From: a virus
Taxonomy: Duplodnaviria; Caudoviricetes
Virus record (IMG/VR): IMGVR_UViG_3300025390_000026
Location: 1-33,009 of that record
DNA length: 33,009 bases
Reading direction: 5' to 3' (one strand)
The translations under genes and the position numbers were made by a program. Within the stretch, counting starts at the first letter, position 1. The number at the start of each line of letters is the position of its first letter. The notes beneath the pieces are model-generated. The model was not told where the DNA came from and ran no database searches. It was given only the letters and a program-made list of their open reading frames with translations. Of the stretch, positions 1 to 33,009 are shown piece after piece.

Positions 1-127
1 AGGCTGTTGGACAGCGCCTGCGGCTGCTTGGTTGTCGTGACCACCGGTTTGGATTCGTGCATCCATTTTGTTTGTTCTCCTTGGCTATAACGTTGCCAGC
101 GTATTGTTATTTATGCTCGGGAGAACT
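1..127 (+). repeat. Exact 127-bp repeat of 32264-32390 (circular overlap; 5' end of scaffold gene and its leader)
   Basis: AGGCTGTTGG...GGGAGAACT is identical at 1-127 and 32264-32390, then diverges. Confidence 0.95.
108..114 (-). promoter_or_regulatory. ATAAATA late-promoter-like box upstream of scaffold-capsid operon (second copy 32371-32377)
   Basis: ATAAATAAC about 42 nt upstream of the scaffold ATG, followed by an AAGGAG RBS; motif recurs before many genes. Confidence 0.6.
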
Positions 128-137
128 TAGTTAATGG

Positions 138-1790
138 TTAGCGACCTGTGTTTAGACCTGTGATCTGCACTGCCACCGCTTGCGAGGGGTAATATGAAGT
201 TCCCATCGGAGTCGTGGGCGTTCCAGGACCTCCCAGGATACTGGCATTGTCTGCACTACCAAACTCACCAACACCCTCTTCTTGCTCTGCATTGATTCTG
301 GTTTGTTCAATAGCAGCGATCTCTTCCTTAGTCATCTCTGGATTAGGTTCAGGGATCATGGAGTATAGATTGTCTGCGGTGACGGCCTCGTTGGCTTCAT
401 CCAGAAGTAGATTACGCACTGCCTGATCTGGGATGCTATTCACATATACTGCTTCGTATTCTGCTGTGTCTTCTGTAGGAGCCAGCATACTAATGAGTTC
501 CTTAGTGATCAGGGCCTTTACCATCTCGCTATCACCAGCAAGCGTACTTGCCTGCTGCAGGAGGGCCATACGATAGTTTGTATCGTGCGCTTCGTAATCT
601 GTATTATAGCAAATGCTGCCTGCCCATCTCTGGCCCATAAATCTCGCAGCATATGTAAAGATCATACCTTCGGTTACTTCCATCAGCCTGGCTTTGGATT
701 TGGCAACTCTATGCACCTGTTTGCGTTCTTCTATGATGGAGATGCCTGATGCCACTTGTTGCTTGTCTTGGCGCTGACCGCCCATACCAACGAGACCTTC
801 CAGATTGCTCAGGATGTCATTCTGCTTCTTGATGATCTGCTCTACATCGCCAGTATCAATCTTGATTGCTTCTACTTGATCCTTTAAGGCACGAACGATA
901 GCACCAGCATGGACAGGAATAGCGATGCCTTTCTCGGCTCGGATGATTGTGTGAGCAAACTGTAATGCAGTATATGCTTCGCATTCCAACTTGTAGTGTT
1001 CTCTCATCGCGTCACTTGCAGCATCAATATCGCTGACGCCAAGGTCAATAACTCTGGGATCCTTACGACCAAATGCGATGAACAGGGGAATGCTCATACC
1101 AGCAGGGAACTGGCCAGCACCGATGCATTCTGCTTCATTGTCCAGTTGTCCGCTGAGGCTCATCTTGGGCAACTTATAACTGGCCCAGTGTGAAGGAGTA
1201 TTTGCATCACCCAAGTAATAGCATTTTAGATAGAAGTAATCTACATCTTCCATCTCCTTTACTTTCACATACTTGAGGATAGGCTTACCACCATAGTATT
1301 CCCATTCCCAGTCCCATACATCAATAGGGCTGATGGCGCAGGTATAAGGTCTGCCAAGATTACCTTGAGCAGTCTGCGGCATATCTACTGCGATCCAGCA
1401 GTGACCGAAGATTGATGTGAGATCGCCCACTTGTTCCATGAAACTATCAATATCACGGTTCTGCAGGTCAATGTCCATGGTGAATAGATCAGCCCACTCA
1501 CTATTATCAGGGTTAATAATAGTGCCTTGCGGTGTAGCAAATCTGATGTCGCGTTTTACGCCAGTCTCAAACAGGATGTCATTGATGGTATCAACAACAT
1601 AACGGCATATGGGCTGTGCTACAGTGTTGGTGATGAGGTCATTCCAAAGCACCGAATCCTCGCTTGGACGCTTCTTACGCACCTGCTGCTTGAAGATATA
1701 GCCCCCAAGATATGCATACTGGTAGTTCATCATTTGTTGGATGATAGCACTATAAGTTGTGCTCTTCTTGGTGAGATCGCTTACCTTCAT
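138..1790 (-). CDS. Portal protein
   Basis: 550 aa, between terL and scaffold in circular order; portal-like segments (YLGG, FGHCWIAVD...RPY, QVASGISI) and an acidic C-terminal tail. Confidence 0.85.
   Translation of the reverse strand: MKVSDLTKKSTTYSAIIQQMMNYQYAYLGGYIFKQQVRKKRPSEDSVLWNDLITNTVAQPICRYVVDTINDILFETGVKRDIRFATPQGTIINPDNSEWADLFTMDIDLQNRDIDSFMEQVGDLTSIFGHCWIAVDMPQTAQGNLGRPYTCAISPIDVWDWEWEYYGGKPILKYVKVKEMEDVDYFYLKCYYLGDANTPSHWASYKLPKMSLSGQLDNEAECIGAGQFPAGMSIPLFIAFGRKDPRVIDLGVSDIDAASDAMREHYKLECEAYTALQFAHTIIRAEKGIAIPVHAGAIVRALKDQVEAIKIDTGDVEQIIKKQNDILSNLEGLVGMGGQRQDKQQVASGISIIEERKQVHRVAKSKARLMEVTEGMIFTYAARFMGQRWAGSICYNTDYEAHDTNYRMALLQQASTLAGDSEMVKALITKELISMLAPTEDTAEYEAVYVNSIPDQAVRNLLLDEANEAVTADNLYSMIPEPNPEMTKEEIAAIEQTRINAEQEEGVGEFGSADNASILGGPGTPTTPMGTSYYPSQAVAVQITGLNTGR
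178..278 (+). repeat. Exact 101-bp repeat of 32909-33009 (portal 3' region)
   Basis: GCTTGCGAGGGG...AACACCCTC is identical at both places, offset 32731. Confidence 0.95.
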
Positions 1791-1820: not shown

Positions 1821-2228
1821 TCAAGTTTTGCTTTTGCATTTGTCACCGTGTGCGAGTGCGTATATATTTACGGCTACATCTTTATTGCAGTGTTCGCATA
1901 CGCGCCTCTTCTGCTTCCAGCCTTTCGTGATAACAAAGTTATGCCTGCCCTTCTCCATCATATCTCTGACATTATCCTTCCTCGTGCCTGTCCATAGATG
2001 ATCAGGATTAACGCACTTTGGATTGTCGCAACTATGGCATACTACATTGCCTGGGGGAATAGGACCTTTGTGTTCTTCGTAACTCACGCGATGCGTAGTT
2101 CTCATCTTGTCTGGTGCTGTGCGGATCATACCATATCCGCAATTGTTATTACCGCCTTCATAGTTCCAGCACGCTGTCACAGGATCTACTTTAACTCGGT
2201 CTAATAATCTTTTTAGTAGTGGTGTCAT
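1821..2228 (-). CDS. HNH homing endonuclease with C-terminal CxxC...HGDxC module
   Basis: CW...GYG...HRVSYE...VCHSCDNPKCVNPDHL..GT..DNVRDM.EKGR is the phage HNH motif; free-standing between terL and portal; GGAGG RBS and ATAAATA at 2250-2256. Confidence 0.9.
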   Translation of the reverse strand: MTPLLKRLLDRVKVDPVTACWNYEGGNNNCGYGMIRTAPDKMRTTHRVSYEEHKGPIPPGNVVCHSCDNPKCVNPDHLWTGTRKDNVRDMMEKGRHNFVITKGWKQKRRVCEHCNKDVAVNIYALAHGDKCKSKT

Positions 2229-2260: not shown

Positions 2261-3706
2261 TTATATCCATTTTTGATAATCTTCGGCTTCATCTTCGCCC
2301 ATCATGATTTGTTCCCAGGTCGGGCCGCCTGGATACACAGGACTCGGTGGCATATACCGCAGTCCAGGCTGTGTGAGTTGCTGATACTTGGGATCCATTC
2401 CCAGATACTCGGGTAAGTTGTATGGCGTCTCGTGCGTGATGGGGAATAGATGATGGATACCATATCGTATGCTATCGCCCAAGCCGTCAATGTGAGCATA
2501 GCGTTGTTCGGTATACTTAACCAACTTCTTGCGTGATGCATCCTCAAAGTGATAGGTGCCAAGAGCATCTAATAGGAACTTATCGTCTGGATCCACCCAT
2601 AGGCCACCTCTGGCTATGAAGGCATTAGAAGTATTGTCAGTGTCCGACACCAATGGATTGCTACGCCTGCTATTCACGATTGTAAATCCATATCGCTCAA
2701 GGATAACACGGTCGGTGATGCCGAAGGCACTGGTGGTATCTCTGTTAAGTTGTGTACCTGACATATCTATGATGCTGTCAATCCTGCGTCGGGGGAAATC
2801 ATCGCGTATTGCTTGTGCGATACCTTCTGTGCTGCAGTCAGGAATAGCATAGGTCCTCAGGACCTCTATGGTGCCATCTCGTGTATGTTCGCCCCTGACT
2901 TGGGCAACCACAGCACACATAACACGCTTGTTGAAGTCGTGGAAGGAATACAGAGGACCTCCCCGATCCTCTATCTTTTTAGTATATTTCGTCTTGTCCC
3001 AGGCGTAGTAGAACATATCTGCAACGCTTTCCCATTGGCACATATAATCCTGTGCGAACTTTAAGGGACTGATGATTCGCTTCTGTTCTTCTATGAAGTT
3101 GCGATTGCCTGAACGCATCTCCATATAGTTGTAGTGACGCACAACATACTTCTCTGGATTGTCACGGGCGAGGTTGAATAGGTCGTGCAGTGGTCCAGCA
3201 CCATTTGGTGTACTGATAACGATCAAGCGACCTTGTGTATCGGGTTGTCCTACCTTAGGTCTCAGGCGGTTTGTGATTTCTTGCAGCGTATCTCTGGTGT
3301 AGAGTGCGGCTTCGTCTGCTACCCATACGCCCACATTGAGACCTCTCAAGTTCTCCCTTTGTTCTGCTGATTTACATCTTATGAAGACGCCGTTGGGAAA
3401 CTTGATAGTGAGTTCGCTGTTGTTTATGTCCTTGCCATCTACTAAGCCGAAGTGTTTAACGCAACTCTGCTTCAGTGGTTCCCAGATCAGGGACTTGATC
3501 ATGGCACCTGTTGGTGCGCTGTAGATGATATCTTTACCCTTATGGAACTTGGCATCGCTGGCAAATATAGGCAAGGCGATAGCAGCAAGGAATGTCTTGC
3601 CGCTACCTACGGGAACAACATCTATACAATGCTTGTCTGTTGTGAGCCAGTCCTTGAGTATGGTCTTCTGCTCACCAAACAGCGGTATATCAATCTTTCC
3701 AGTCAT
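2261..3706 (-). CDS. terL: Terminase large subunit
   Basis: Walker A VGSGKT, LRGL..Walker B VADEAA, motif III ISTPNG, RNase H-like nuclease residues (HDFN...HIDGLGDSIRY). Confidence 0.92.
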   Translation of the reverse strand: MTGKIDIPLFGEQKTILKDWLTTDKHCIDVVPVGSGKTFLAAIALPIFASDAKFHKGKDIIYSAPTGAMIKSLIWEPLKQSCVKHFGLVDGKDINNSELTIKFPNGVFIRCKSAEQRENLRGLNVGVWVADEAALYTRDTLQEITNRLRPKVGQPDTQGRLIVISTPNGAGPLHDLFNLARDNPEKYVVRHYNYMEMRSGNRNFIEEQKRIISPLKFAQDYMCQWESVADMFYYAWDKTKYTKKIEDRGGPLYSFHDFNKRVMCAVVAQVRGEHTRDGTIEVLRTYAIPDCSTEGIAQAIRDDFPRRRIDSIIDMSGTQLNRDTTSAFGITDRVILERYGFTIVNSRRSNPLVSDTDNTSNAFIARGGLWVDPDDKFLLDALGTYHFEDASRKKLVKYTEQRYAHIDGLGDSIRYGIHHLFPITHETPYNLPEYLGMDPKYQQLTQPGLRYMPPSPVYPGGPTWEQIMMGEDEAEDYQKWI

Positions 3707-4525: not shown

Positions 4526-4809
4526 TTAATCACCTCCATCTGTTGGGTGGCCTTAGCGATCTCTTCTTCTATAGAGTTCTTCTCGCGGATTTCTCCCAGC
4601 TTGCTTTCCATTACTAGGGCACCCAGAAACTGATAGACTTGTTGCAGACCTACGCACTTCATATCAAAGAGTTCAATCTCTTTTTGTGTGAACTTGGTGA
4701 GGTCCATATCGCATAAGGTGTTATAGTTTTTCTGTATGTCTGCCATAAGGGGCTCAATATTGACCCAGGTCTGGCCTTCGTGCCGCTCTAACTTATATGT
4801 GTTTTTCAT
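4510..4809 (-). CDS. Hypothetical protein
   Basis: 99 aa ORF packed between co-oriented neighbours. Confidence 0.7.
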   Translation of the reverse strand: MKNTYKLERHEGQTWVNIEPLMADIQKNYNTLCDMDLTKFTQKEIELFDMKCVGLQQVYQFLGALVMESKLGEIREKNSIEEEIAKATQQMEVIKWEAE

Positions 4810-5155
4810 TTGTTTTTTCCATCTTTGCTGCCGCTCTGGCGTCCCTTAGTCTCTGTTGTGCCCTACGCATGTTGGCACGGTGTTCCGCAGATTTGGGGAC
4901 GCCCAGCTTTGCTTGCCGCATCTTCTCGCGGTGTTCATCTGTCTTGGGAATACCGAGGCACACACGCCTGATTCCCTTTACTACATTCTCATACTGAGCC
5001 TGCGTCATAGGACCAGTTCCACGCATCCAAGCAGTAAAGCCTGCTTCTTGCACGGGATTTGGTACCTCTGTGGTTCCGAAACGCTTGATCTGCTTTTCAC
5101 CATCTGCATCTCGGTAACGATGCCAGCGTGAATACATGTTCTTGTATGGGGCCAT
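4793..5155 (-). CDS. NUMOD3-repeat DNA-binding protein (no nuclease motif seen)
   Basis: GIPKTDEHREKMRQAKLGVPKSAEHRANMRRA = two NUMOD3-like repeats; TATAAATA at 5182-5189 and AGGA RBS. Confidence 0.65.
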   Translation of the reverse strand: MAPYKNMYSRWHRYRDADGEKQIKRFGTTEVPNPVQEAGFTAWMRGTGPMTQAQYENVVKGIRRVCLGIPKTDEHREKMRQAKLGVPKSAEHRANMRRAQQRLRDARAAAKMEKTNEKHI

Positions 5156-7282: not shown

Positions 7283-7313
7283 TATTTATACTATAACCTA
7301 TTTATGTTGTCAA
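7283..7313 (-). promoter_or_regulatory. Sigma70-type promoter overlaid with two ATAAATA boxes
   Basis: TTGACA (7313-7308), 17 bp, TATAAA (7290-7285); ATAAATA at 7305-7299 and TATAAATA at 7290-7283. Confidence 0.75.
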
Positions 7314-7780
7314 GACTTATTTTTGCAGTTATCGCCGTGCCAGCGTTTATAGTTGGCATTATCAGTAGTCTTGTTGCAATGAGGACAGGTTGAAAGGTTT
7401 TCTTCCTTATTCCAACGGTCCTTCATACCATTTTTAATGCCTTCAATCCACTTGGGATTACTGGCTTGTGCGCCGTTGATTGCCTTACGGACCTTTTTGA
7501 ACTCTGGATCATCCTCACGCTTTCTAGCACCTGCCTTAACATTTTTTTGCCATTCAGGATTATTTGCTCGGATGTTATGAATTCCTTGAAGTTGGTGTTC
7601 CTTCCATTCTTCTGTCTGTGTTTTTTTGCGAATGCCAGCGGCTTGCGCTTTCCGCCATTTAGGATTGTCACTTTGTCCCTTATTCGCAATCTTATGATTG
7701 AGTGTGGGACTTGTCAAGTCCCAACCAGGAAGATTTTGGTTACCCCATTCATCAGGATTAAAATCATCAAGCCTTGGCAT
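7310..7780 (-). CDS. Basic repeat protein with C-terminal CPHC...HGDNCK module (homing-endonuclease-associated domains; likely start ATG 7780)
   Basis: Repeated NPKW/NPEW/DPEF helical units and TCPHCNK...KRWHGDNCK; overlaps the 3' end of the ATPase gene. Confidence 0.6.
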   Translation of the reverse strand: MPRLDDFNPDEWGNQNLPGWDLTSPTLNHKIANKGQSDNPKWRKAQAAGIRKKTQTEEWKEHQLQGIHNIRANNPEWQKNVKAGARKREDDPEFKKVRKAINGAQASNPKWIEGIKNGMKDRWNKEENLSTCPHCNKTTDNANYKRWHGDNCKNKS

Positions 7781-8612
7781 TGGCAGACCCCAGCTTGATG
7801 TTGTCAAGCAGAACACGCTTCATCATGGGATTAGCATTATGATAATAGATAGTATCTGCAATCTTGACTGCTACCCGAGGAGTGATATCCGATAGATACA
7901 TATAGTTATCATCAATGTAGTCCATGGCCTCGTCAACAACTTCTTGCGGATAGCCGTTGAACTTCTTGCCATCCAGCTCATATGTATGAACCTTACACTT
8001 ATCAGACAGCATGTGCTTGTCCTCTACCAGATACTTGGTATACATATACTTCTGCTCGTGATTAAAGATGCAACTCACGCTATTGAAGCGACTGGAGAAC
8101 GCTTGCTTCCATTGAGACATCTTTGCACCGATATCTTCCATGGTGTAGTTGGTAATAACGATAATGTTGCCGTTGAACATGAAGTCAAAGGGAACATCAT
8201 GCTCTTCCATGAGCGCATTGCGCTTTGCAGTATTCCAACTGCAGAGACGATTGCGACCTTCTTCCACTGCACCGAGGATCAGGGGAACGATCTTGGACTT
8301 CTCAGCATGGTTGATGATATCCACGTCGTCCAGCACCATGATGCGATTGGAGAAGCGATTGAGGTAGAGCTTTACATACAAGCCTGCGGCAGTGATAGTG
8401 CCGCCCTTGATGTATTCAACATTTTGCATGACACCTGCGTCACGCAGTGCTTCCTGTACAAAGTGCGACTTACCAGTACCAGCATCGCCCATGACCAGCA
8501 GACCGTTGATGGCGCTACCTGGATTATTTGCGAAGTTCAGCGTCTGATAATATGTCGTCTGGAAAGCCTCTACAACGGGCTTGATAATGGGATTGATACG
8601 TTCCTTAGTCAT
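7767..8612 (-). CDS. AAA+/P-loop ATPase (likely start ATG 8612)
   Basis: Walker A GDAGTGKS, Walker B VLDDVD, sensor I ITN, arginine finger AFSSRF; GAGGAGG RBS. Confidence 0.85.
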   Translation of the reverse strand: MTKERINPIIKPVVEAFQTTYYQTLNFANNPGSAINGLLVMGDAGTGKSHFVQEALRDAGVMQNVEYIKGGTITAAGLYVKLYLNRFSNRIMVLDDVDIINHAEKSKIVPLILGAVEEGRNRLCSWNTAKRNALMEEHDVPFDFMFNGNIIVITNYTMEDIGAKMSQWKQAFSSRFNSVSCIFNHEQKYMYTKYLVEDKHMLSDKCKVHTYELDGKKFNGYPQEVVDEAMDYIDDNYMYLSDITPRVAVKIADTIYYHNANPMMKRVLLDNIKLGSANAKA

Positions 8613-10964: not shown

Positions 10965-11399
10965 CTATGCGAGTGTGCTGCGCAACATCCACTGAAAGCG
11001 ATAGTGATCGTCAAGGCGCGCTTCTAGGTAGTTTACGAGACCGTATGCTTCCTGCTCGCCTGCCACAGCATGAGCATCGCGTATTGTCTGGCATACAGTT
11101 TCGGTATCAGCCAGCAGTTCTCTAATCATGGTGAGAGCATCTGGCGTATCTGTAGCATCTGTGATCTTGCTGAGTTTTGTGATGCGATCTAGGCTGAAGG
11201 GAACCACGCTCTGCAAGGACCTTATTTCCTCGGCGATCTTGTCAATGTTCTCTTGTGCATCTTCATACACCTTCTGCAGCAACTTGTGATACTGATAGAA
11301 GTCGGGGCCCACCACATTCACATGATAGCCGTGTGACTTTGTATAGTACTGGAAGTTGGTGGCGAAATACACCTTCATCAACGTGATTAGTTCATCCAT
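10965..11399 (-). CDS. dps: Dps/ferritin-like protein
   Basis: HGYHVNVVGPDFYQYH...Y......DKIAEEIRSL ferroxidase signature and C-terminal WMLRS; ATAAATA at 11428-11434. Confidence 0.9.
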   Translation of the reverse strand: MDELITLMKVYFATNFQYYTKSHGYHVNVVGPDFYQYHKLLQKVYEDAQENIDKIAEEIRSLQSVVPFSLDRITKLSKITDATDTPDALTMIRELLADTETVCQTIRDAHAVAGEQEAYGLVNYLEARLDDHYRFQWMLRSTLA

Positions 11400-11894: not shown

Positions 11895-14240
11895 TTATCC
11901 TGTTACTGTCCAGTTCTTGAAGGTGGCTAAGTTAGTGTTTAGTATGCGTGATGATACTGCTGTTGCAGTGCCGTTACCTGCGGGATAGGCGTTCAGCACC
12001 ACGTTCGCATTTGTATTTACTGCAGTTACCTGAATATTCACGCTCATGGTCGCGCTTCCGTTGGTAAATGTCAAGGGAGTGCCGCCTGGTGTAGCACTGA
12101 TGTTATAGGTCCAAGGACCGCTGCCCGAAACATTGCTGGTGTAATAGAGCGTGTTGGCTGCTATGTTGCTGGTAGTTACTGAAGGGAACGCAACTACAGT
12201 GTTTGCTGTGGGCATATAGGTGCTGACGCTTACAAGATTGCTGCTGAGCGTAGCGGCATAGCCCAGTTGGACGTTTGCGGTGTTGGATATCTGTGCACCA
12301 ACTACCACGCCTACCGTGTTAGCCATAGTCATGACATTGCTGGCGTTGTTCCAAATGGCTGTCTTGCTGAGTGCAGTATCAGTTCCTGGGTTACCCGTGA
12401 CGGTGATTGTCTGGGCGCCGTTAGAGATGAGACCGTTAGCAAATACCGCTTGCATAGTGTTGGCACTGAACTTGGCTTGTAGAGTTATCGGGAACTTAAT
12501 GTTGGTAGAATCAAGTTGTGATAGATTAAAAGTGGATGTTATAAAGTTAGTCGTAGCGTTGGTCACATTAGTTAAGTTATAGTTGGGAATATTTTGTAAT
12601 GCAACACATAAGTTAAACATACTGGTTGCAACTGTAACATTATTAGTAGTCATAGAAGGAGCAGATAGCAAACCATAACATCCATTAAATGTACTAAGTG
12701 TAGTTGTAACATTGGCGGTATTAGATAGAGTAACACTTGATAATGCATTACATCCTTGAAAGCAAGAACTTATATCAGTTGCTTTAGGGATATTTAGGTT
12801 GGCAGTGGTTAATCCAGTGCATAGATAAAATGTCTGTGACAGGTTAGCCACATTGGAATAATCATATGAAGGTGTAGTATTGAGTGAACAGCAGTTACCA
12901 AACATATTCTGCATATTAGTAACATTGCTTGTGCTAGTAAGGGGCGGTGCAGTAAGCAATGAATAACATCCATTAAATGCACCATTCATAGTAGTAACTT
13001 TTGCAGTATTAAATGCAGGAACACTGGTTATAGAATAACAACCGAAAAAAGCATTTGCCATAGTAGTTACGTTAGCAGTATTGAACGGCGGTATACTGAT
13101 TAGTGATGGACAGGTACCAAATATGTTTTGCATATTGGTTACTTTGATAGTATTATATGTTGGTGCATACAATAGGTTTGTGCATCCGTTAAACATACCT
13201 AGCATAGTAGTCACATTTGCTGTATTGAAGAAAGGAGCCACTGAAAGTGAAGGACAATTATTAAACATATTAGACATATCAGTTACAGATGATGTATCAA
13301 ATGTAGGCACACTAATCAAAGCGTTACATCCTTGGAACATACCTGATGTAGTAGTAATCTTATTGCCACCCAATATTCCAGAAATAGTTTTTAGATCAGT
13401 ACAAACAGCGAACATCTGGGCAGCATTAACTGAGGTACAGTTAGTAAAATCATATACAGGAACATATTGCAGTGCATAGCAGGTATTAAACATATAATTT
13501 AAGTTAACTGTGGTTGAGGCAAAGTTTAGATTAGGAGCATTTTTTAATGAGAAACAGTAAGAAAAACCGAACTGGGCATCACCTACAAGAGCATTGCTGG
13601 GCCAGATAACATTTTGTAGGCTATAACAGTTTCTAAAAAAGCTTGATAAGGTCCAGTTAGTGGAGGTAGACAAACTTACAACATTGATTTGTTCTAATAA
13701 AGATTGTAATATACTGTTACTATTTGTTCCTATACTAACGCCTGTAAAATAAGGACTTCCTAATACAATATCTAACCAAGGATTAGTAGCATTTGTCCAA
13801 CCAGCACCTGCAGGAACAGTTGAGTTTTTTACCTGTAGATTGATACCAGTCAAGTTACCAGACACAGCAGTAACTTTTACGACGGCTTGTTTATAACCAC
13901 GTGAACTGATAGTAGATGCTGATAGGTTGGCATAGTTATATTGATAGTTTGCCTGTACGCCGCTGGCATAGGTCAGGACAGTTCCATCTCCCCAGTCAAC
14001 CTGATAGTTACCTGCACTGGTTGTAGCAGATATGGCTATGTAGTTGGCATCGTTGTTCCATACAGCAACCAGACCAGCGAACAACTGAGTTGTAGCAGTA
14101 AGCGTAGGAAGAGCCAACCAATCACTGGGACGCACATAAGGAGTAGGAGATGAAACAGGAACATATTGCTTAGGCTTAGATTGCGGTATTACCGCATCCT
14201 TATTTCCTCCAGATGCATTGGTGCCATATCTAACCGACAT
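11895..14240 (-). CDS. BspA/DUF285-type repeat virion or receptor-binding protein
   Basis: Many ~23-aa repeats like FNTANVTTMLGMFNGCTNL; VDWGDGT PKD-like motif; in tail module. Confidence 0.8.
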   Translation of the reverse strand: MSVRYGTNASGGNKDAVIPQSKPKQYVPVSSPTPYVRPSDWLALPTLTATTQLFAGLVAVWNNDANYIAISATTSAGNYQVDWGDGTVLTYASGVQANYQYNYANLSASTISSRGYKQAVVKVTAVSGNLTGINLQVKNSTVPAGAGWTNATNPWLDIVLGSPYFTGVSIGTNSNSILQSLLEQINVVSLSTSTNWTLSSFFRNCYSLQNVIWPSNALVGDAQFGFSYCFSLKNAPNLNFASTTVNLNYMFNTCYALQYVPVYDFTNCTSVNAAQMFAVCTDLKTISGILGGNKITTTSGMFQGCNALISVPTFDTSSVTDMSNMFNNCPSLSVAPFFNTANVTTMLGMFNGCTNLLYAPTYNTIKVTNMQNIFGTCPSLISIPPFNTANVTTMANAFFGCYSITSVPAFNTAKVTTMNGAFNGCYSLLTAPPLTSTSNVTNMQNMFGNCCSLNTTPSYDYSNVANLSQTFYLCTGLTTANLNIPKATDISSCFQGCNALSSVTLSNTANVTTTLSTFNGCYGLLSAPSMTTNNVTVATSMFNLCVALQNIPNYNLTNVTNATTNFITSTFNLSQLDSTNIKFPITLQAKFSANTMQAVFANGLISNGAQTITVTGNPGTDTALSKTAIWNNASNVMTMANTVGVVVGAQISNTANVQLGYAATLSSNLVSVSTYMPTANTVVAFPSVTTSNIAANTLYYTSNVSGSGPWTYNISATPGGTPLTFTNGSATMSVNIQVTAVNTNANVVLNAYPAGNGTATAVSSRILNTNLATFKNWTVTG

Positions 14241-14574: not shown

Positions 14575-17226
14575 TTACATTCCTCCGAGTAAAAATGATG
14601 GTACATAGTCTGTTGGTGTTCCTGCACTCACTGATGCGAACACGCCGTTGCCGTATAGCACATTGCTGGTGCTACCTGTTAGATTGATTGTGGCGATATT
14701 GCCTATGCCTACCACGTTTGCGACATTCACTGAATAGGCATTACCTGCATATGCTGCATAGTTGGCATTAGCAACTGTGCCAGTGACATTCGCACCTGCA
14801 ACCGCATTAGCACTTGATGCGATACCTGCATATGCTGCATAGTTGGCATTGGCTACGACACCGCTTACATTGGCACCAGCAACCGCATTAGCACTTGATG
14901 CGATACCTGCATATGCTGCATAGTTGGCATTTGCCACGACACCGCTTACATTGGCACCAGCAACCGCATTAGCACTTGCTGCGATACCTGCATATGCTGC
15001 GTAGTTGGCATTGGCTACGACACCGGTGACATTCGCACCATTTACCGAATACGCAGTTCCAGCATAGATTGAGTAGTTGGCATTCGCTACGGTGCCAGTG
15101 ACATTGGCTCCTGCAACACTATTTGCTGTTGCTGCTGTTCCTGCGTAGATAGAATAGTTAGCGTTGGCAACGGTGCCTGTGACATTGGCTCCAGCAACTG
15201 CATTAGCACTCGCAGCAGTTCCAGCATAGATTGAGTAGTTCGCATTAGCAACGGTTCCTGATACATTCGCACCTGCTACTGAGTTAGCAACTGCAGCGAA
15301 CGAGACTTGACCAGTGACATTTGCACCTGCTACGCTATTGGCTGTAGATGCGACATTAGCAAAGAGGGCGTAGTTGGCATTAGCGACTTGACCTGATACA
15401 TTCGCTCCTGCTACTGCATTCGCTGTATTGGCGATGGTCGCATTACCTGCATATGCTGCATAGTTGGCATTTGCTACTATACCAGTGACATTAGCACCTG
15501 CTACGCTGTTGGCTGTAGATGCGATACCTGCATATGCTGCATAGTTGGCATTAGCCACATTGGATACATTAGAACCATTTACATTGCTCAGGTAACTACC
15601 ATCACCGATGAAGTAGTTGGACCTTACTGCATTGCCGAGATTGGCGCTGCCAGCCTTGATGTTACCGAATGTATTGACAGTAACAATGTTATTTGTGACT
15701 GATACATTGCTACCGAACTGAAACTCGCCATTCGCGTTCTTCCAGCCCATAAATGCTGAAACTGGAGTAGTTGTATAATAGTCTAATACGGTGCCGCGGT
15801 CAAAGCCATCGTTGCTTGTCAGCGGAGTATTGTTGGGACCACCACCGAGAGTGAGGATCGGAGCCTCTACATACACGATGTTAGAGTTGATATAGTCTAT
15901 GTTACCATTGATAGTGAGGTCGCCATTGATTGTGGCATTACCATTCACGGTCAGACCAGTCAGCGATCCAACACTTGTGATGTTAGGCTGTGCATTGATA
16001 TACACAGTGCCTGCGATGAGTGCGTTTGCTACTTGACCTGATACATTCGCACCTGCTACTGCATTCGCTGTATTGGCGATGGTCGCATTACCTGCATATG
16101 CTGCATAATTTGCATTAGCGACTATACCAGAGACATTAGCACCAGCGACACTATTGGCAACATTAGCAGTTCCAGCATAGGTCGCATAGTTGGCATTTGC
16201 TACGAAGCCAGAAGGAGGAGCGAAGACGCCGTTGCCATATAGGATAGTAGTCGTGCTACCTGTTAGATTGACGGTTGCGATGTTACCGATGCCTGCGACA
16301 TTGCTGACTGCTACTGAGTTTGCTACTGCAGCATAGTTGACCTGACCTGTTACATTCGCACCAGCCACTGAATAAGCAACATTGGCAGCATCTGCGATAT
16401 TGGAATGTGTCGCATTTGCTACATAGCCCGTCACATTCGCGCCAGTGATATTGCCAAGATTACGACCATCACCCACAAAGTAGTTGGCAGATACCGCATT
16501 TCCGAGATTTGCGTTATTTGCAGCCAGATTAGCACTAACTATGACTGAATCGCTGTTACTGCTCAAGTTTTGGCTACCTAGGAAAATAGTCGTTCCTGAG
16601 AGATATAAGTCTTTGAACCTATTGGTATTATTTCCGAGATTTGCACCAAGATTTGCATTTGGCACGATATCGCCACTTACTTGCAAACCAGTTAAAATGC
16701 CTACTGATGTGATATTTGGTTGAGAACCTACAGTTACATTACCTGCATAGTTGGCAAAGTTAGACACCAATGCATTATTCACGCTACCTGTGACATTAGG
16801 TCCTGCTACTAAGTTGGCTATGTTAGCGACATTAGCGTTACCTGCATAGAGCGAATAGTTGGCATTTGCGACTTGACCTACAACATTGCTACCTGATACA
16901 GAGAATGCATTACCTGCATAGTTGGCAAAGTTGGCGTTTGCTACGAATCCAGAAGGAGGAGCGAACACGCCGTTGCCATATAAGATATTGCTGGTGCTAC
17001 CTGTCAGATTGACGGTGGCGATATTACCGATACCAACGACATTGCTGACATTTACCGAGAAAGCAGTGCCGGAGAAGTTGGCGTAGTTGGCGTAGTTCGC
17101 ATAGTTGGCTACAGGAACATTACTTAATGTATAGGCTGATCTGCTGAGTTGGACCTGTACCTGAGGAGTAGGTTCTATGTTTATTTTTACTTCGTGGTCG
17201 CGTGATACGATTATCTGATTTGCCAT
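14575..17226 (-). CDS. Ala/Asn-rich repetitive tail fibre
   Basis: 883 aa with ~26-aa ANANYAAYAG...AVAGANVSG repeats and QPNITSVG fibre motifs. Confidence 0.8.
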   Translation of the reverse strand: MANQIIVSRDHEVKINIEPTPQVQVQLSRSAYTLSNVPVANYANYANYANFSGTAFSVNVSNVVGIGNIATVNLTGSTSNILYGNGVFAPPSGFVANANFANYAGNAFSVSGSNVVGQVANANYSLYAGNANVANIANLVAGPNVTGSVNNALVSNFANYAGNVTVGSQPNITSVGILTGLQVSGDIVPNANLGANLGNNTNRFKDLYLSGTTIFLGSQNLSSNSDSVIVSANLAANNANLGNAVSANYFVGDGRNLGNITGANVTGYVANATHSNIADAANVAYSVAGANVTGQVNYAAVANSVAVSNVAGIGNIATVNLTGSTTTILYGNGVFAPPSGFVANANYATYAGTANVANSVAGANVSGIVANANYAAYAGNATIANTANAVAGANVSGQVANALIAGTVYINAQPNITSVGSLTGLTVNGNATINGDLTINGNIDYINSNIVYVEAPILTLGGGPNNTPLTSNDGFDRGTVLDYYTTTPVSAFMGWKNANGEFQFGSNVSVTNNIVTVNTFGNIKAGSANLGNAVRSNYFIGDGSYLSNVNGSNVSNVANANYAAYAGIASTANSVAGANVTGIVANANYAAYAGNATIANTANAVAGANVSGQVANANYALFANVASTANSVAGANVTGQVSFAAVANSVAGANVSGTVANANYSIYAGTAASANAVAGANVTGTVANANYSIYAGTAATANSVAGANVTGTVANANYSIYAGTAYSVNGANVTGVVANANYAAYAGIAASANAVAGANVSGVVANANYAAYAGIASSANAVAGANVSGVVANANYAAYAGIASSANAVAGANVTGTVANANYAAYAGNAYSVNVANVVGIGNIATINLTGSTSNVLYGNGVFASVSAGTPTDYVPSFLLGGM
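14740..15560 (-). repeat. Tandem ~78-bp coding repeats within the fibre
   Basis: ACCGCATTAGCACTTG(A/C)TGCGATACCTGCATATGCTGC recurs at 78-bp period near 14801, 14882 and 14963 with more diverged units on either side. Confidence 0.8.
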
Positions 17227-17227
17227 T

Positions 17228-18007
17228 TTACAATCCTACGCCTGAACTGGTATTAACCACTCCGTCTGAGTTCACCAAGAACAGAAGGAATATTGCTTCA
17301 TCATATGCTGGCTGTGCCCCGTGAGCAGGGAAACTTATTTTAATACGACCTGTATAACAAGCAGGTTCTAACGCATTGATGTCAAGGTCAGGATCGCCTG
17401 CGATCAGGCCCCAAGTGCTCTCGTCAATAATAAGTGTGAAGGTTCCAGCAAGATCATCGCGATTAGTGATACTCATTGTGATAGGAGTCGGCGCTATTGT
17501 GTTAGCATCCATTGACCCTGTTTGTGTGCTTGGCACAAACACACTTCCACCTGATGTAGCACTGATAGTGAATGTTGTGCTTGACAGGACATTTAGCACA
17601 TAGTAAGTGGTATTGAGTTGCACTCCACCATATACAGCACCAGTAAAGCGAATAGGCTTACCTACATATAGAAGTGCAGTCGTATCACAAGTAAATGTAT
17701 TGTCGCTGGCTGATGTCGCAGTTACTGTGCAGACCTTAGGAACCAGAGGATAGTCATTGATCTGGAAGTTATATCCAGAACGACTGTCTGAGAAGTTTGT
17801 GATAGCACGACGCACGATCTGTGCGCTGATTGTAGCACCTGTGAGGTCTACAGGAACAGTATTAGCAGTCCAACCACCTGCATAACTGACAATCGTGCTC
17901 CAAGCCAGATTCCAATAATCGTTTTGGTTGTAGATGAGGTTCTGTGCTAATACCTGAGCACCGAATCCTGCCACTTGTGTTAAAGTGGCTTGTGAGAATG
18001 TGGCCAT
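17228..18007 (-). CDS. Virion/baseplate structural protein
   Basis: PVDLTGATISAQI motif typical of baseplate upper (BppU-like) N-termini; tail module position. Confidence 0.6.
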   Translation of the reverse strand: MATFSQATLTQVAGFGAQVLAQNLIYNQNDYWNLAWSTIVSYAGGWTANTVPVDLTGATISAQIVRRAITNFSDSRSGYNFQINDYPLVPKVCTVTATSASDNTFTCDTTALLYVGKPIRFTGAVYGGVQLNTTYYVLNVLSSTTFTISATSGGSVFVPSTQTGSMDANTIAPTPITMSITNRDDLAGTFTLIIDESTWGLIAGDPDLDINALEPACYTGRIKISFPAHGAQPAYDEAIFLLFLVNSDGVVNTSSGVGL

Positions 18008-18453
18008 TATACGGCTTCCTTTTCTTTTCTTTTATTTGCTTCTCGTATTTTAGAAGCCTGTCTAAGTTTTTCGCGATGTTCTGGACTAAATGGTGCTCTC
18101 TTTTTACCTAACTGAGCCATTCTCATTTTTTCGCGGGACTCTGCTGTGCGTGTTTTGCCTGTAGCAGAAAGGCGACGCTTCTCAATATCTTGAGATGGTT
18201 TCTTTTTGCCCAACTGAGCATCCCTTACATTTTGTGAATGTAGTTGGATGAATACATTGCCTAATGCATAAGGACCGATGTCACCAAATCGGCTCATCGC
18301 ATATTGTCCTCTACGACAACCACGAAGTTCCCATTTACCTGATTGTTCCCAGATTGCACACCACTCATCAAAGGTGAGAGTGAACTCAATGCCTCGTTTT
18401 TCGGCACTTTTTTTATGTGCATTATAACGCCGTCTGGCGATTTTCATATCCAT
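18007..18453 (-). CDS. HNH-like putative homing endonuclease with NUMOD3 repeats
   Basis: LTFDEW..IW..SG...MSRFGDIGPYALGNVFI.....N core plus TAESREKMRMAQLGKK and SPEHREKLRQA; paralogue of 32404-32829. Confidence 0.7.
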   Translation of the reverse strand: MDMKIARRRYNAHKKSAEKRGIEFTLTFDEWCAIWEQSGKWELRGCRRGQYAMSRFGDIGPYALGNVFIQLHSQNVRDAQLGKKKPSQDIEKRRLSATGKTRTAESREKMRMAQLGKKRAPFSPEHREKLRQASKIREANKRKEKEAV

Positions 18454-18517
18454 TATATCTTCCTCTGCATTCTCGCATTATAACGAACGACTACTGCCTC
18501 GCCATCGTTCGCGTGAT

Positions 18518-18557
18518 ATAATAAGTCATAACAACTCTTATGTCAAGTATATTTATA
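18518..18557 (-). promoter_or_regulatory. TATAAATA box followed by sigma70-type promoter
   Basis: TATAAATA 18557-18550; TTGACA 18546-18541, 17 bp, TATTAT 18523-18518. Confidence 0.65.
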
Positions 18558-18562
18558 CTTCC

Positions 18563-30413: not shown

Positions 30414-31526
30414 TTAAGCGTCCTGAACGATATTGATGGCACCACCACGACGCTGGTCACCAACGCCGCTACCGAAGTAACCGACACCAGTCAACCAGTT
30501 CTGCAAGCCACCTGGTACTTCACCCAGCTTGATCTGTAGACCTTCCTTCATGACAGTGAACAGAGCACTCTCACCGAAGTATGCGCCTACGAGGCAAGGA
30601 GTAGAAGCAGTACCAGCGATTGTGCGAGTTGTATGCTGAAGGAATGTGGTGAACATTACCATAACCCCATAAACGTTTTCAATCTTGCCGGTCTGTAGCA
30701 ACTCATTACCAAGAGCAGATAGGTTAGAACCACCTGAAGATGGACCAGAGACTGAACCACCAGTTAGTTCTGCGAGAAGGCGAGTCAATGAAGAACCGCT
30801 TCCGCCCACTGCGCCTACAGTTGCTTCAGTTACGATACCGTTGCTGTCAAGAACAACAACTGGGTTACCAGTCATACGAGCGATCTTGAACTGTTGCTTG
30901 GCGAGACGGATCAGGCCGATAACAGTATTCTCAGTGAAGCCACCTGTACCAGCGAGAACGTTGCCGCCTGCTGGGAGGAGTTCAAGAGCACCAAGACGCA
31001 GGACGCGATAGTATCCGTCAGCACTCTGAGGATAGAATGTGTTACCTGGAGTTGGCTTGAAGCCAGTTGTCTGACCTACTGGAGTTGCAGTGCCATCAGT
31101 CTCTGAAGCAGTGCCATTGGCGAATGCTTGGCAGACACGCTGGTCAACCTTTTCAGCGAATGAGTCGCCGAGTTCTGCACCGAGAGTTGCTGCCAACTGG
31201 AAGCTAGTAGTCCAACCCAGGAAGATATCAAAGGCAGTAGTTGCTACTGCAGGTGATGCCAAGATGCTGGTCTGAGACATAGCAGGATTCTGGACAGTCG
31301 CGTTACCAGTATTCCAAGGAGCAACATTAGAGCCCGCTGGATTGAAGTCTTGGTACGTAATGGGTGCGAAATTTGGCACCAAGAACTGATTACCCTGAGT
31401 TGGGGTAACAACGTTAGTCATATTAACTAGACCGAGTGATTCGTGCATTGCACGTAGTGCGAAGTTTGCGATTGCGAATGTGAAACCATAGTTTTCGCCA
31501 TCCGATCCACCGAGTACGTAAGCCAT
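30414..31526 (-). CDS. Major capsid protein
   Basis: 370 aa after scaffold; LGAELGDSFAEKVDQ spine helix, GKIENVYGV, GYFGSGV patterns; AAGGAG RBS. Confidence 0.8.
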   Translation of the reverse strand: MAYVLGGSDGENYGFTFAIANFALRAMHESLGLVNMTNVVTPTQGNQFLVPNFAPITYQDFNPAGSNVAPWNTGNATVQNPAMSQTSILASPAVATTAFDIFLGWTTSFQLAATLGAELGDSFAEKVDQRVCQAFANGTASETDGTATPVGQTTGFKPTPGNTFYPQSADGYYRVLRLGALELLPAGGNVLAGTGGFTENTVIGLIRLAKQQFKIARMTGNPVVVLDSNGIVTEATVGAVGGSGSSLTRLLAELTGGSVSGPSSGGSNLSALGNELLQTGKIENVYGVMVMFTTFLQHTTRTIAGTASTPCLVGAYFGESALFTVMKEGLQIKLGEVPGGLQNWLTGVGYFGSGVGDQRRGGAINIVQDA

Positions 31527-31555: not shown

Positions 31556-32329
31556 TTAGATGATAGTTTTCCCCGGCATTGAGCTTGTGGCTGATACTTG
31601 CATAATCTTTAGACCGACATTCTTACCTAGACCTGATTTTTGCGCCCAAGCATTGAACGCGGCAGGATCCTTAGAATAGTCAGGAATAGAGTCTTGCGGA
31701 GCACCAGCAAAGTTACCTTGACCGGGACGTAGACCAGATCCAGAGGAGAGCGTATTCTGCTTTAGTAGCTTGGGATTACCTGCGGCTACTTCTTGGACTA
31801 ACCCCTGGATGGTAAGTGGATTGCCGTCAATACCGTAACGCTCTTGTCCTTTACCATTGATTATGTTGTAGGTACCATCACTATTCCACTGAATATTGCT
31901 TTTAACCTTACTTAATGCATAATCTAACAGGTCTGGATCAAATCGGTCACCCATAGCACGCTGAATATCACTGTCCAGTTCTCGCTCACGGATCATCTGG
32001 TCTTTGCGAGCCAGGTCCGATTGTAGTTTACTGAACTGCTCATGCAGATCGTTAGTAGTGACGCGACCAGCGCGTTGCTGTTGCGGTTCTTCCACTGGCT
32101 GTGCGGAGCCACCGGTTTGTTGAGATGCAGAAGTCCTTGCCATGAAACTTAACGCTGCTTCTACTGACTCAAAGTTTTGTCCAGATGCCTGCGAAAGTGC
32201 ATTCAGGATTGAGTTAGTGGTGCTCTTACGAATAGCACCTGCATTGACTTGTGTATCTGCTTCAGGCTGTTGGACAGCGCCTGCGGCTGCTTGGTTGTCG
32301 TGACCACCGGTTTGGATTCGTGCATCCAT
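31556..32329 (-). CDS. Capsid scaffolding protein
   Basis: Between portal and capsid; coiled coil then NPKLLK..SSGSG linker and short C-terminal helix. Confidence 0.75.
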   Translation of the reverse strand: MDARIQTGGHDNQAAAGAVQQPEADTQVNAGAIRKSTTNSILNALSQASGQNFESVEAALSFMARTSASQQTGGSAQPVEEPQQQRAGRVTTNDLHEQFSKLQSDLARKDQMIRERELDSDIQRAMGDRFDPDLLDYALSKVKSNIQWNSDGTYNIINGKGQERYGIDGNPLTIQGLVQEVAAGNPKLLKQNTLSSGSGLRPGQGNFAGAPQDSIPDYSKDPAAFNAWAQKSGLGKNVGLKIMQVSATSSMPGKTII

Positions 32330-32403
32330 TTTGTTTGTTCTCCTTGGCTATAACGTTGCCAGCGTATTGTTATTTATGCTCGGGAGAACTAATATAGTAT
32401 TGA

Positions 32404-32829
32404 CTATTTTTTATTCCAAGGAATCCTGTTAGAACAATCGTAAAGTCCATTTACGAATACATTTTTTTTACTATTCTTTTGGCCCAAACTATTAGCAAGC
32501 CTGCGTTCTTCACTATGCTTTACGCCTATTAGTTTTTGTCGCCGACGCTCAATCAAAGCAGGATCTTGTTTTTTACCTTTATGTGCTTCACTGGCGTTCT
32601 GTTCATTACTATTGATATAGACATTACCTACTTCATAGGCACCAGTATCACCGTAACGGCTCATACAATAAGTTCCTGCGCCTCTGCCGCGGAGATGATA
32701 TACTCCTGATTGTTGCCAAATATCCCACCATTCCTCAAAGGTGAGTTTCCATTCTATTTCTCTAATCTTTGCCATTGATCGCTGGCGAGAGAATATTGTT
32801 GAAGGCGGCAATGTTTTAACTAGGCTCAT
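32404..32829 (-). CDS. HNH-like putative homing endonuclease with NUMOD3-like tail (likely start ATG 32829)
   Basis: LTFEEWWDIWQQSG...CMSRYGDTGAYEVGNVYI.....N; GVKHSEERR; the ORF-track TTG start coincides with a -35 box. Confidence 0.75.
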   Translation of the reverse strand: MSLVKTLPPSTIFSRQRSMAKIREIEWKLTFEEWWDIWQQSGVYHLRGRGAGTYCMSRYGDTGAYEVGNVYINSNEQNASEAHKGKKQDPALIERRRQKLIGVKHSEERRLANSLGQKNSKKNVFVNGLYDCSNRIPWNKK

Positions 32830-32836
32830 ACTTTTT

Positions 32837-32865
32837 AATATAAGACCAGTTTTATGAGAAGTCAA
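32837..32865 (-). promoter_or_regulatory. Sigma70-type promoter of the cassette, probably leaderless
   Basis: TTGACT (32865-32860), 17 bp, TATATT (32842-32837), ATG 7 nt later with no RBS. Confidence 0.65.
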
Positions 32866-32868
32866 GTA

Positions 32869-33009
32869 TTATCTTCCGGTGTTGAGCCCCGTTATTTGCA
32901 CGGCTATGGCTTGCGAGGGGTAATATGAAGTTCCCATCGGAGTCGTGGGCGTTCCAGGACCTCCCAGGATACTGGCATTGTCTGCACTACCAAACTCACC
33001 AACACCCTC
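32869..33009 (-). CDS. Portal C-terminus, alternative recoded allele (partial)
   Basis: Translates ...YYPSQAIAVQITGLNTGR* versus ...YYPSQAVAVQITGLNTGR* at 138-194. Confidence 0.9.
   Translation of the reverse strand, partial: EGVGEFGSADNASILGGPGTPTTPMGTSYYPSQAIAVQITGLNTGR

Follow-up and report, generated by a model that had tools for sequence, protein, structure and literature searches.

A probable homing cassette behind a phage portal gene, with a re-spelled portal end and a putative histidine-less nuclease

The window, as we call the whole stretch of 33,009 nucleotides analysed here, is a circular phage genome whose assembly ran through a two-allele bubble and left one path at each end. 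In the empty allele the portal gene ends in its native tail; in the occupied allele, a 518-bp segment brings a re-spelled portal end together with a gene for a 141-residue protein. We consider it likely that the 518-bp allele is a mobile cassette which spreads by intronless homing, equipped with a putative nuclease and with a self-immune portal tail that is locked to the cassette. The candidate target would be the empty portal end, most likely at about positions 153-188.

Results

Two alleles in one circular genome

The genome in the window belongs to a tailed phage, and almost all of its genes lie on the minus strand. The features relevant to the two alleles are:

128-177, minus strand: empty allele, 50 bp, with the native portal tail, stop and a 10-nt spacer
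138-1790, minus strand: portal gene, empty-allele version, 550 aa (phrog_145 portal, E 1.7e-22)
141-179, with stop at 138-140, minus strand: last 13 portal codons of the empty allele, by translation
1821-2228, minus strand: HNH_3 gene, between terminase and portal
2261-3706, minus strand: terminase
30414-31526, minus strand: capsid gene
31556-32329, minus strand: head scaffolding gene (phrog_206, E 1.7e-07), the downstream neighbour in both alleles
32264-32390: assembly overlap, downstream flank, 127 bp, exact copy of 1-127
32391-32908, minus strand: occupied allele, 518 bp, with a GC content of 39% (the genes on either side have 47-48%)
32404-32829, minus strand: 141-aa putative homing endonuclease gene in the cassette (phrog_16521, E 7.6e-24)
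32837-32865, minus strand: candidate sigma-70-like promoter match (10/12, 17-nt spacer), ending 7 nt ahead of the ATG
32869-32908, minus strand: recoded portal tail and stop on the cassette, 11 of 13 codons changed, V to I
32909-33009: assembly overlap, upstream flank, 101 bp, exact copy of 178-278
32938 (= 207), minus strand: synonymous Pro-codon change tied to the occupied allele; the window has the empty-allele base

As the preliminary description had claimed, 50 bp are exchanged for 518 bp between flanks that are exactly identical, and the circle sizes that follow, 32263 bp for the empty and 32731 bp for the occupied form, are exact. A recount also returned the same 13 substitutions in 37 nt between 141-177 and 32872-32908, altering 11 of the last 13 sense codons with a single amino-acid change, V to I. 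The longest run that is identical in the window's two tails measures 5 nt. The cassette gene is a free-standing ORF between the portal stop and the scaffold gene, and the portal is whole in both alleles.

The border between the alleles, originally placed at 178/32909, stands in the window itself and fails in the independent occupied records, which carry a linked synonymous change at 32938. This variant is present in all of them (X1, X3, X15 and L016; see below), while the empty records (X1, X14 and L001), together with both ends of the window, have the other base at 32938/207. The allele difference therefore extends 30 nt past the border and, given the empty-allele base at 32938 in the window, its last 101 bases mix both alleles.

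The promoter-like match ahead of the cassette gene would yield a leaderless transcript and gives a weak hint that the cassette may drive its own expression; the region holds three sigma-70-like matches against 1.7 expected, so the match is weak when taken alone, and the spacer bearing it is absent in other cassettes. A TAAATA box between portal stop and scaffold start is found in 50 of 61 empty types, and in the window (90-100 and 32353-32363) it is untouched by the cassette. We take this box to resemble a T4 late promoter.

Elsewhere, the window holds a tape measure gene and tail genes. Two short ORFs (4793-5155 and 7310-7816) appear nuclease-like, with weak matches to homing-endonuclease PHROGs. 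A Dps/ferritin-like gene lies at 10965-11399; in several relatives it sits directly behind the portal stop instead. The segments 11895-14240 and 14575-17226 encode a DUF285 repeat protein and a fibre-like protein with 81-nt repeats. Rfam gave no match anywhere in the window. The closest named portals, those of Pelagibacter phages, share 22% identity, which is too distant for host assignment.

Both alleles in independent records

Of 24 public runs listed, all from freshwater in 2017 and perhaps from one campaign, four were examined at the level of contigs. Run X1, which may be the window's source run, contains an occupied unitig of 608 nt (depth 18.2) and an empty unitig of 140 nt (depth 7.1), with shared flanks at depths 31 and 25.1. 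Run X14 has the empty junction along with a portion of the cassette, and runs X3 and X15 present the occupied form alone in contigs, which cannot prove absence of the empty one. Viral contigs from other assemblies provide a further example of each allele, L001 (empty) and L016 (occupied), the latter differing from the window at one base in 4436 nt, namely position 32938.

These records speak to the concern that the assembler joined a 518-bp piece from another phage to this genome. Such an artefact would be in keeping with contig ends that are assembly overlaps and with a final 101 bases that mix two alleles. On the other hand, the separate viral contig L016 carries the occupied form within 4.4 kb of near-identical sequence, the occupied form is bridged in X3 and both paths are present in X1, and we regard the probability of an artefact as negligible. 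Both junctions, empty and occupied, are supported by public-run contigs as well as by separate viral contigs: the two alleles are real and segregate in a natural phage population.

A second near-isogenic pair

A second comparison of the same kind is given by two other loci, L024 (empty) and L273 (occupied). Their first 887 nt are identical and all 16 differences in 942 nt fall within the last 55 portal nt, changing 14 of the last 19 codons, with V to I at the same place as in the window. The L273 cassette adds 446 nt and encodes a protein 70% identical to the window's; beyond it, the two loci agree at 449 of 451 nt (2 differences). To call the tail synonymously recoded understates the pattern, since one and the same V-to-I change recurs in the two isogenic pairs. 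In the two pairs the longest runs shared by both alleles' tails are 5 and 6 nt. At window positions 176, 165, 162 and 153, the candidate discriminating bases, the two empties agree and both carriers differ from them.

The two pairs come from distant phages: over the stretch compared, the L024/L273 portal body has 50% protein identity to the window's and differs at 61% of synonymous codons. Among all other tails, however, the one closest to the window's occupied tail is that of L273 (40/48 nt; next 35-36). That L273 is nearest in the tail despite a distant portal body indicates that tail and gene move together between lineages, so that horizontal transfer of tail and gene as a unit between phage lineages is shown by the sequence comparison. 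Occupied portal-end types are scattered across the portal tree, with the cassette present or absent among near-identical genomes. Among occupied types, protein identity and tail identity correlate with rho 0.37 (p 0.10).

Codon usage at the portal end

The survey covered 212 loci with this portal end (52 + 83 + 77, two of them the window's own record), which reduce to 91 distinct types. Eight have a homologue of the cassette gene right after the portal stop and 75 are empty; another two have a different short insert and six are too short to classify. Each tail was scored for codon rarity against the codons of empties at the same position and amino acid. The occupied types rank 2, 3, 4, 5, 6, 7, 8 and 73 (L052) among the 91 (p 1e-4). 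The effect is limited to the last 16 codons (p 4e-4), with p of at least 0.08 in all 17 upstream blocks, and after collapsing similar tails it gives p 2e-4, 5e-4 and 4e-3, weakening to p 0.08 under the strictest collapsing. Searching by the protein added three more occupied types, which score -1.66 (L073/L089), -1.92 (L074) and -1.87 (L075), the empty median being -1.44. Since these three and L052 are not clearly anti-consensus, the effect is present in 7 of 11 occupied types, two of which (L050 and L237) are near-identical. The carriers share derived codons, and occupied tails may stem from few recoding events.

The link claimed between recoded tail and cassette is borne out by the L024/L273 pair and by the survey, in which seven of eight occupied tails are among the eight most unusual of 91. 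Nor are recoded-looking tails common without the gene: they occur in about 3 of 77 non-occupied types (L227, L242 and perhaps L249). L227 and L242 rank 1 and 9 with a carrier-like tail, and the L249 tail resembles that of L290 and lacks the cassette gene; all three are possible scars of cassette loss. L227 (804-898, minus strand) and L242 (947-1032, plus strand) also have a conserved insert of about 90 nt after the portal stop, with two hairpin groups and no nuclease gene, for which there was no Rfam match and no copy among the other fetched loci.

The window's own empty tail proved unusual. That an empty allele exists is confirmed by independent records; its designation as naive is less secure, as the tail ranks 10 of 91, the most unusual of the 75 empties. 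Among 36 Pro-bearing empties it alone has the codon used by 5 of 7 Pro-bearing carriers, a codon that is common in the window's portal (6 of 23), and its GC3 excess of 0.12 is inside the range of empties. The window's empty allele may be non-naive, possibly an old scar.

Two further observations concern the tails. An argument that carriers show more amino-acid changes in a QQAVAVQ motif was dropped because the DNA pattern used to collect loci forces the motif in empties; L012-L014, which were found without it, also deviate. In the clade of L007, L008 and L010, synonymous sites vary less in the empty tails than in the portal body (L007/L010: 2 of 17 against 43%), a pattern that sweeps or a constraint on the DNA itself would be expected to produce.

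The codon pattern weighs on an alternative in which the cassette protein is no nuclease (a catalytically dead DNA-binding protein or a regulatory moron). The cassette would then spread simply because phages recombine by homology within the conserved portal end, and the saturated codons of a distant donor would be carried along. A single pair is indecisive here, and 166 of 2436 empty-empty pairs, differing at 83% or more of synonymous tail codons, are as different as the window's pair, as this alternative would have it. A donor tail, however, should look ordinary, while the carriers' tails are anti-consensus and GC3-rich (0.53, against 0.26 in empties) above AT-rich bodies of their own, whose GC3 of 0.26 (n=7) does not differ from the 0.24 (n=67) of empties. 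The tail GC3 also exceeds that of the window's cassette gene (0.31), and the effect is confined to those last 16 codons. The sharp contrast to identical flanks, together with the family-wide codon pattern, places the difference beyond chance.

The cassette protein and its family

The cassette protein belongs to phrog_16521, a PHROG annotated as unknown function, and neither Pfam nor NCBIfam returned a match for its 141 residues. At E 1e-10 this large family comprises 5,398 clusters, and it fuses with NUMOD3 and HTH DNA-binding modules; 15 of 31 members match an HNH PHROG, and some match Srd anti-sigma and sigma-decoy PHROGs. In the ESM Atlas only unnamed viral clusters were found, one with NUMOD3 in 48% of its members. 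In 80 viral loci (the best 80 of 463) family members are free-standing between virion genes, inserted after the portal, after the capsid, before the portal or between tail genes.

The window itself contains a second member:

18007-18453, minus strand: second family member, between two tail-region genes (43% identity over 106 aa; phrog_16521, E 5.8e-24)

This copy is flanked by a structured-looking leader (18454-18560) and by the gene at 17228-18007. Of three relatives compared, L312 and L313 have a similar leader immediately ahead of the latter gene, with no insert, and L314 has another family member at this place.

The family also occurs in 78 GenBank phage records, T2 included. T2L trna.1 is a frameshifted member (39% identity, E 2e-8), located in the tRNA cluster where T4 has segB. 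The trna.1 frame lies at 511-985 of L310, and homologues are present in S16-like and other T-even phages.

An HNH-like core spans about residues 6-89, with a basic helical tail behind it. The core motif M-x-R-x-x-D-x-G-x-Y-x-x-x-N-x8-N is found in 78 of the 80 loci. Among 162 domains from the 150 best representatives, R58 and N69 are conserved in 162/162, D61 in 154/162, G63 in 159/162, Y65 in 155/162 and N78 in 152/155; the Tyr65 position holds Phe or Val in seven of the 162, and the residue preceding the Arg is not acidic. From the motif spacing, the invariant Arg would occupy the position of the HNH catalytic His. Ten top representatives (P0151-P0160) have two core domains per protein, an arrangement that could permit double-strand cutting by a single chain.

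The enzyme had been likened to the T4 seg/mob type, an assignment we abandon: no GIY-YIG match to the cassette protein was found in Pfam, NCBIfam or PHROG, and with Arg for the catalytic His in all 162 domains it is not a canonical HNH enzyme either. In agreement, there was no Pfam HNH match, and a profile comparison with the family of the window's HNH_3 gene gave a probability of 0.2.

A predicted fold with a possible likeness to PacI

Two models of the protein (pLDDT 87.5 and 92.7) show a strand-loop-strand-helix layout, with strands at 54-58 and 70-74, a helix at 75-83 bearing N78, and Y65 in the loop. Among 48,161 chains the top match of both models is PacI (Z 6.3, rmsd 3.9, 84 residues aligned; Z 5.5, rmsd 4.4, 79 aligned), but an unrelated axonemal chain scores no more than 1 Z unit away. 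In Foldseek against the PDB no match reached E 0.001; its rows are mostly His-Me nucleases, with PacI having the best query TM-score (0.64, none being significant). Several of the fold matches to viral proteins carry an anti-sigma factor label. Two profiles run against the sequences of solved structures returned nothing meaningful and matched no solved nuclease. As modelled, the cassette protein is likely a His-less beta-beta-alpha nuclease.

These results again concern the alternative of a non-nuclease protein. It would account for the missing catalytic His, for the anti-sigma and sigma-decoy matches of sequence and fold, and for the lack of a sequence match to any solved nuclease. Against it, the near-invariant R-D-G-Y-N-N residues, the DNA-binding fusions, the insertion at many unrelated, scattered places and the decayed copy in T2 are in keeping with a selfish nuclease, and in our assessment the non-nuclease alternative is improbable. 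The homing explanation has its own difficulties in the Arg for His, in the middling fold scores and in the four of 11 occupied types that lack a clear codon effect.

A proposed homing mechanism

Mechanistically, in a mixed infection the cassette protein would be expressed, possibly from its own promoter-like site, and bind DNA through its basic C-terminal helices. It would then nick or cut the ordinary portal end of the co-infecting phage by means of a His-less beta-beta-alpha-metal site whose base would be Tyr65, in the manner of PacI. Recombinational repair from the carrier genome would insert the cassette while the portal protein stays whole, and the re-spelled tail would spare the carrier from cutting. 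No identical stretch between the two tails is longer than 5-6 nt, so pairing for repair would have to occur upstream of the tail on one side and downstream of the gene on the other; immunity would then not be copyable without the gene, and the recoded tail would act both as shield and as lock.

A different version keeps the homing endonuclease and places immunity elsewhere, leaving the recoded tail as only a recombination lock or an old hitch-hiker. The insertion could split a site that spans the stop and spacer, or the cut could lie deeper in the portal or in the scaffold gene. Consistent with this version are the occupied types whose tails are not clearly unusual, the linked change 30 nt beyond the tail, and the habit of T4 free-standing enzymes, which often cut hundreds of bases away (passages of PMC2988022), so that adjacency does not fix the target. 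In both pairs, however, the alleles match exactly or almost exactly in the portal body and on the scaffold side, so that the carrier would not escape a cut at a distant site; they differ only in tail, spacer and one synonymous base. A distant target is therefore unlikely given isogenic pairs that are otherwise the same, and we give immunity from elsewhere a low probability, preferring the self-immune tail.

A far more general proposal can be made only tentatively, and we think it doubtful as a whole. PHROG 16521 (more than 5,000 clusters at 50% identity) would consist of homing endonucleases that depend on tyrosine and do without zinc, a large family that has gone unrecognised. At the portal, its members would reach intron-like precision without an intron, the re-spelled end shielding the carrier and blocking the copying of immunity without the gene. 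Each round of invasion and loss would leave a re-spelled scar, among them the window's 'empty' allele, open to renewed attack by later variants. In this way selfish nucleases would keep the synonymous codons at the ends of essential phage genes turning over.

Discussion

The two natural near-isogenic sets supply a protein, a presumed substrate and a presumed resistant control for a very common phage family. If cutting holds true, a His-less branch would be added to the homing endonucleases and thousands of hypothetical genes would receive a name. With the family-wide codon signal, sequence data by themselves can point to homing targets. On the homing reading, conflict between co-infecting phages, and not translation, can decide how the end of an essential gene is spelled.

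A literature search, mostly without subscription papers, found no portal-targeting cassette with a recoded tail, no account of PHROG 16521 as a nuclease and no activity test of any member of the family. Passages of PMC10448857 describe nuclease genes near essential phage genes as widespread, and carry no mention of synonymous change.

The mechanism itself is already known from T4, whose seg and mob genes establish intronless homing with co-conversion (passages of PMC2988022). For MobE, carriers differ at nrdB codon 42, the codon that is nicked in T2, immunity being conferred by a codon polymorphism (PMC2790892). The likeness to MobE and the seg/mob genes lies in an intergenic gene between conserved genes, a patchy presence among close relatives and differing codons in the neighbouring essential gene (PMC2790892 and PMC2988022). 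Unlike them, the cassette protein has neither a GIY-YIG motif nor the HNH histidine and its presumed target is the portal gene; moreover, the differing stretch adjoins the cassette instead of lying hundreds of bases off, and it is recoded almost completely. T2L trna.1, described in passages of PMC2330249 only as an ORF of unknown function, is a homologue that sits where T4 has segB, and differs in being frameshifted.

PacI is an HNH restriction enzyme with a loop Tyr in place of the His (passages of PMC5714182, PMC4081073 and PMC3384342). As modelled, the cassette protein would share with it the beta-beta-alpha layout; like PacI it has no catalytic His, a Tyr in the inter-strand loop and a helical N-terminal part (PMC5714182 and PMC4081073), the tyrosines being compared by layout and not by superposition. 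It has none of the zinc-binding Cys pairs, however, and at 8-10% identity there is no detectable sequence match. With no conserved Cys pairs, it would be PacI-like in layout and is not a member of the PacI family. PacI is also a host restriction enzyme, whereas the cassette protein is encoded by a free-standing phage gene.

The mobile ORFs of fungal mitochondria (Allomyces atp6; Glomus atp6, atp9, cox2 and nad3) form gene hybrids in which, much as here, the element brings a foreign in-frame C-terminus that completes the host gene, followed by a nuclease ORF (passages of PMC3630166). The fungal elements, by contrast, are organellar, of LAGLIDADG or GIY-YIG type, and keep the displaced native C-terminus downstream (same passages). 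No displaced native portal tail follows the cassette in the window, and of nine cassettes scored two exceed all internal control windows, narrowly; with no significant remnant of the native tail, the portal cassette is a replacement, unlike the fungal hybrids. The stop region of the cassette gene in L074, L273 and L038 echoes the last 2-3 portal codons and stop (L074: 11/11 nt); these echoes, which are not significant against controls, hint at an ancestral element inserted within the portal gene. Compared with the known systems, what is new is the clean replacement without a duplicate, its occurrence in two isogenic pairs, and a putative nuclease family that dispenses with the histidine.
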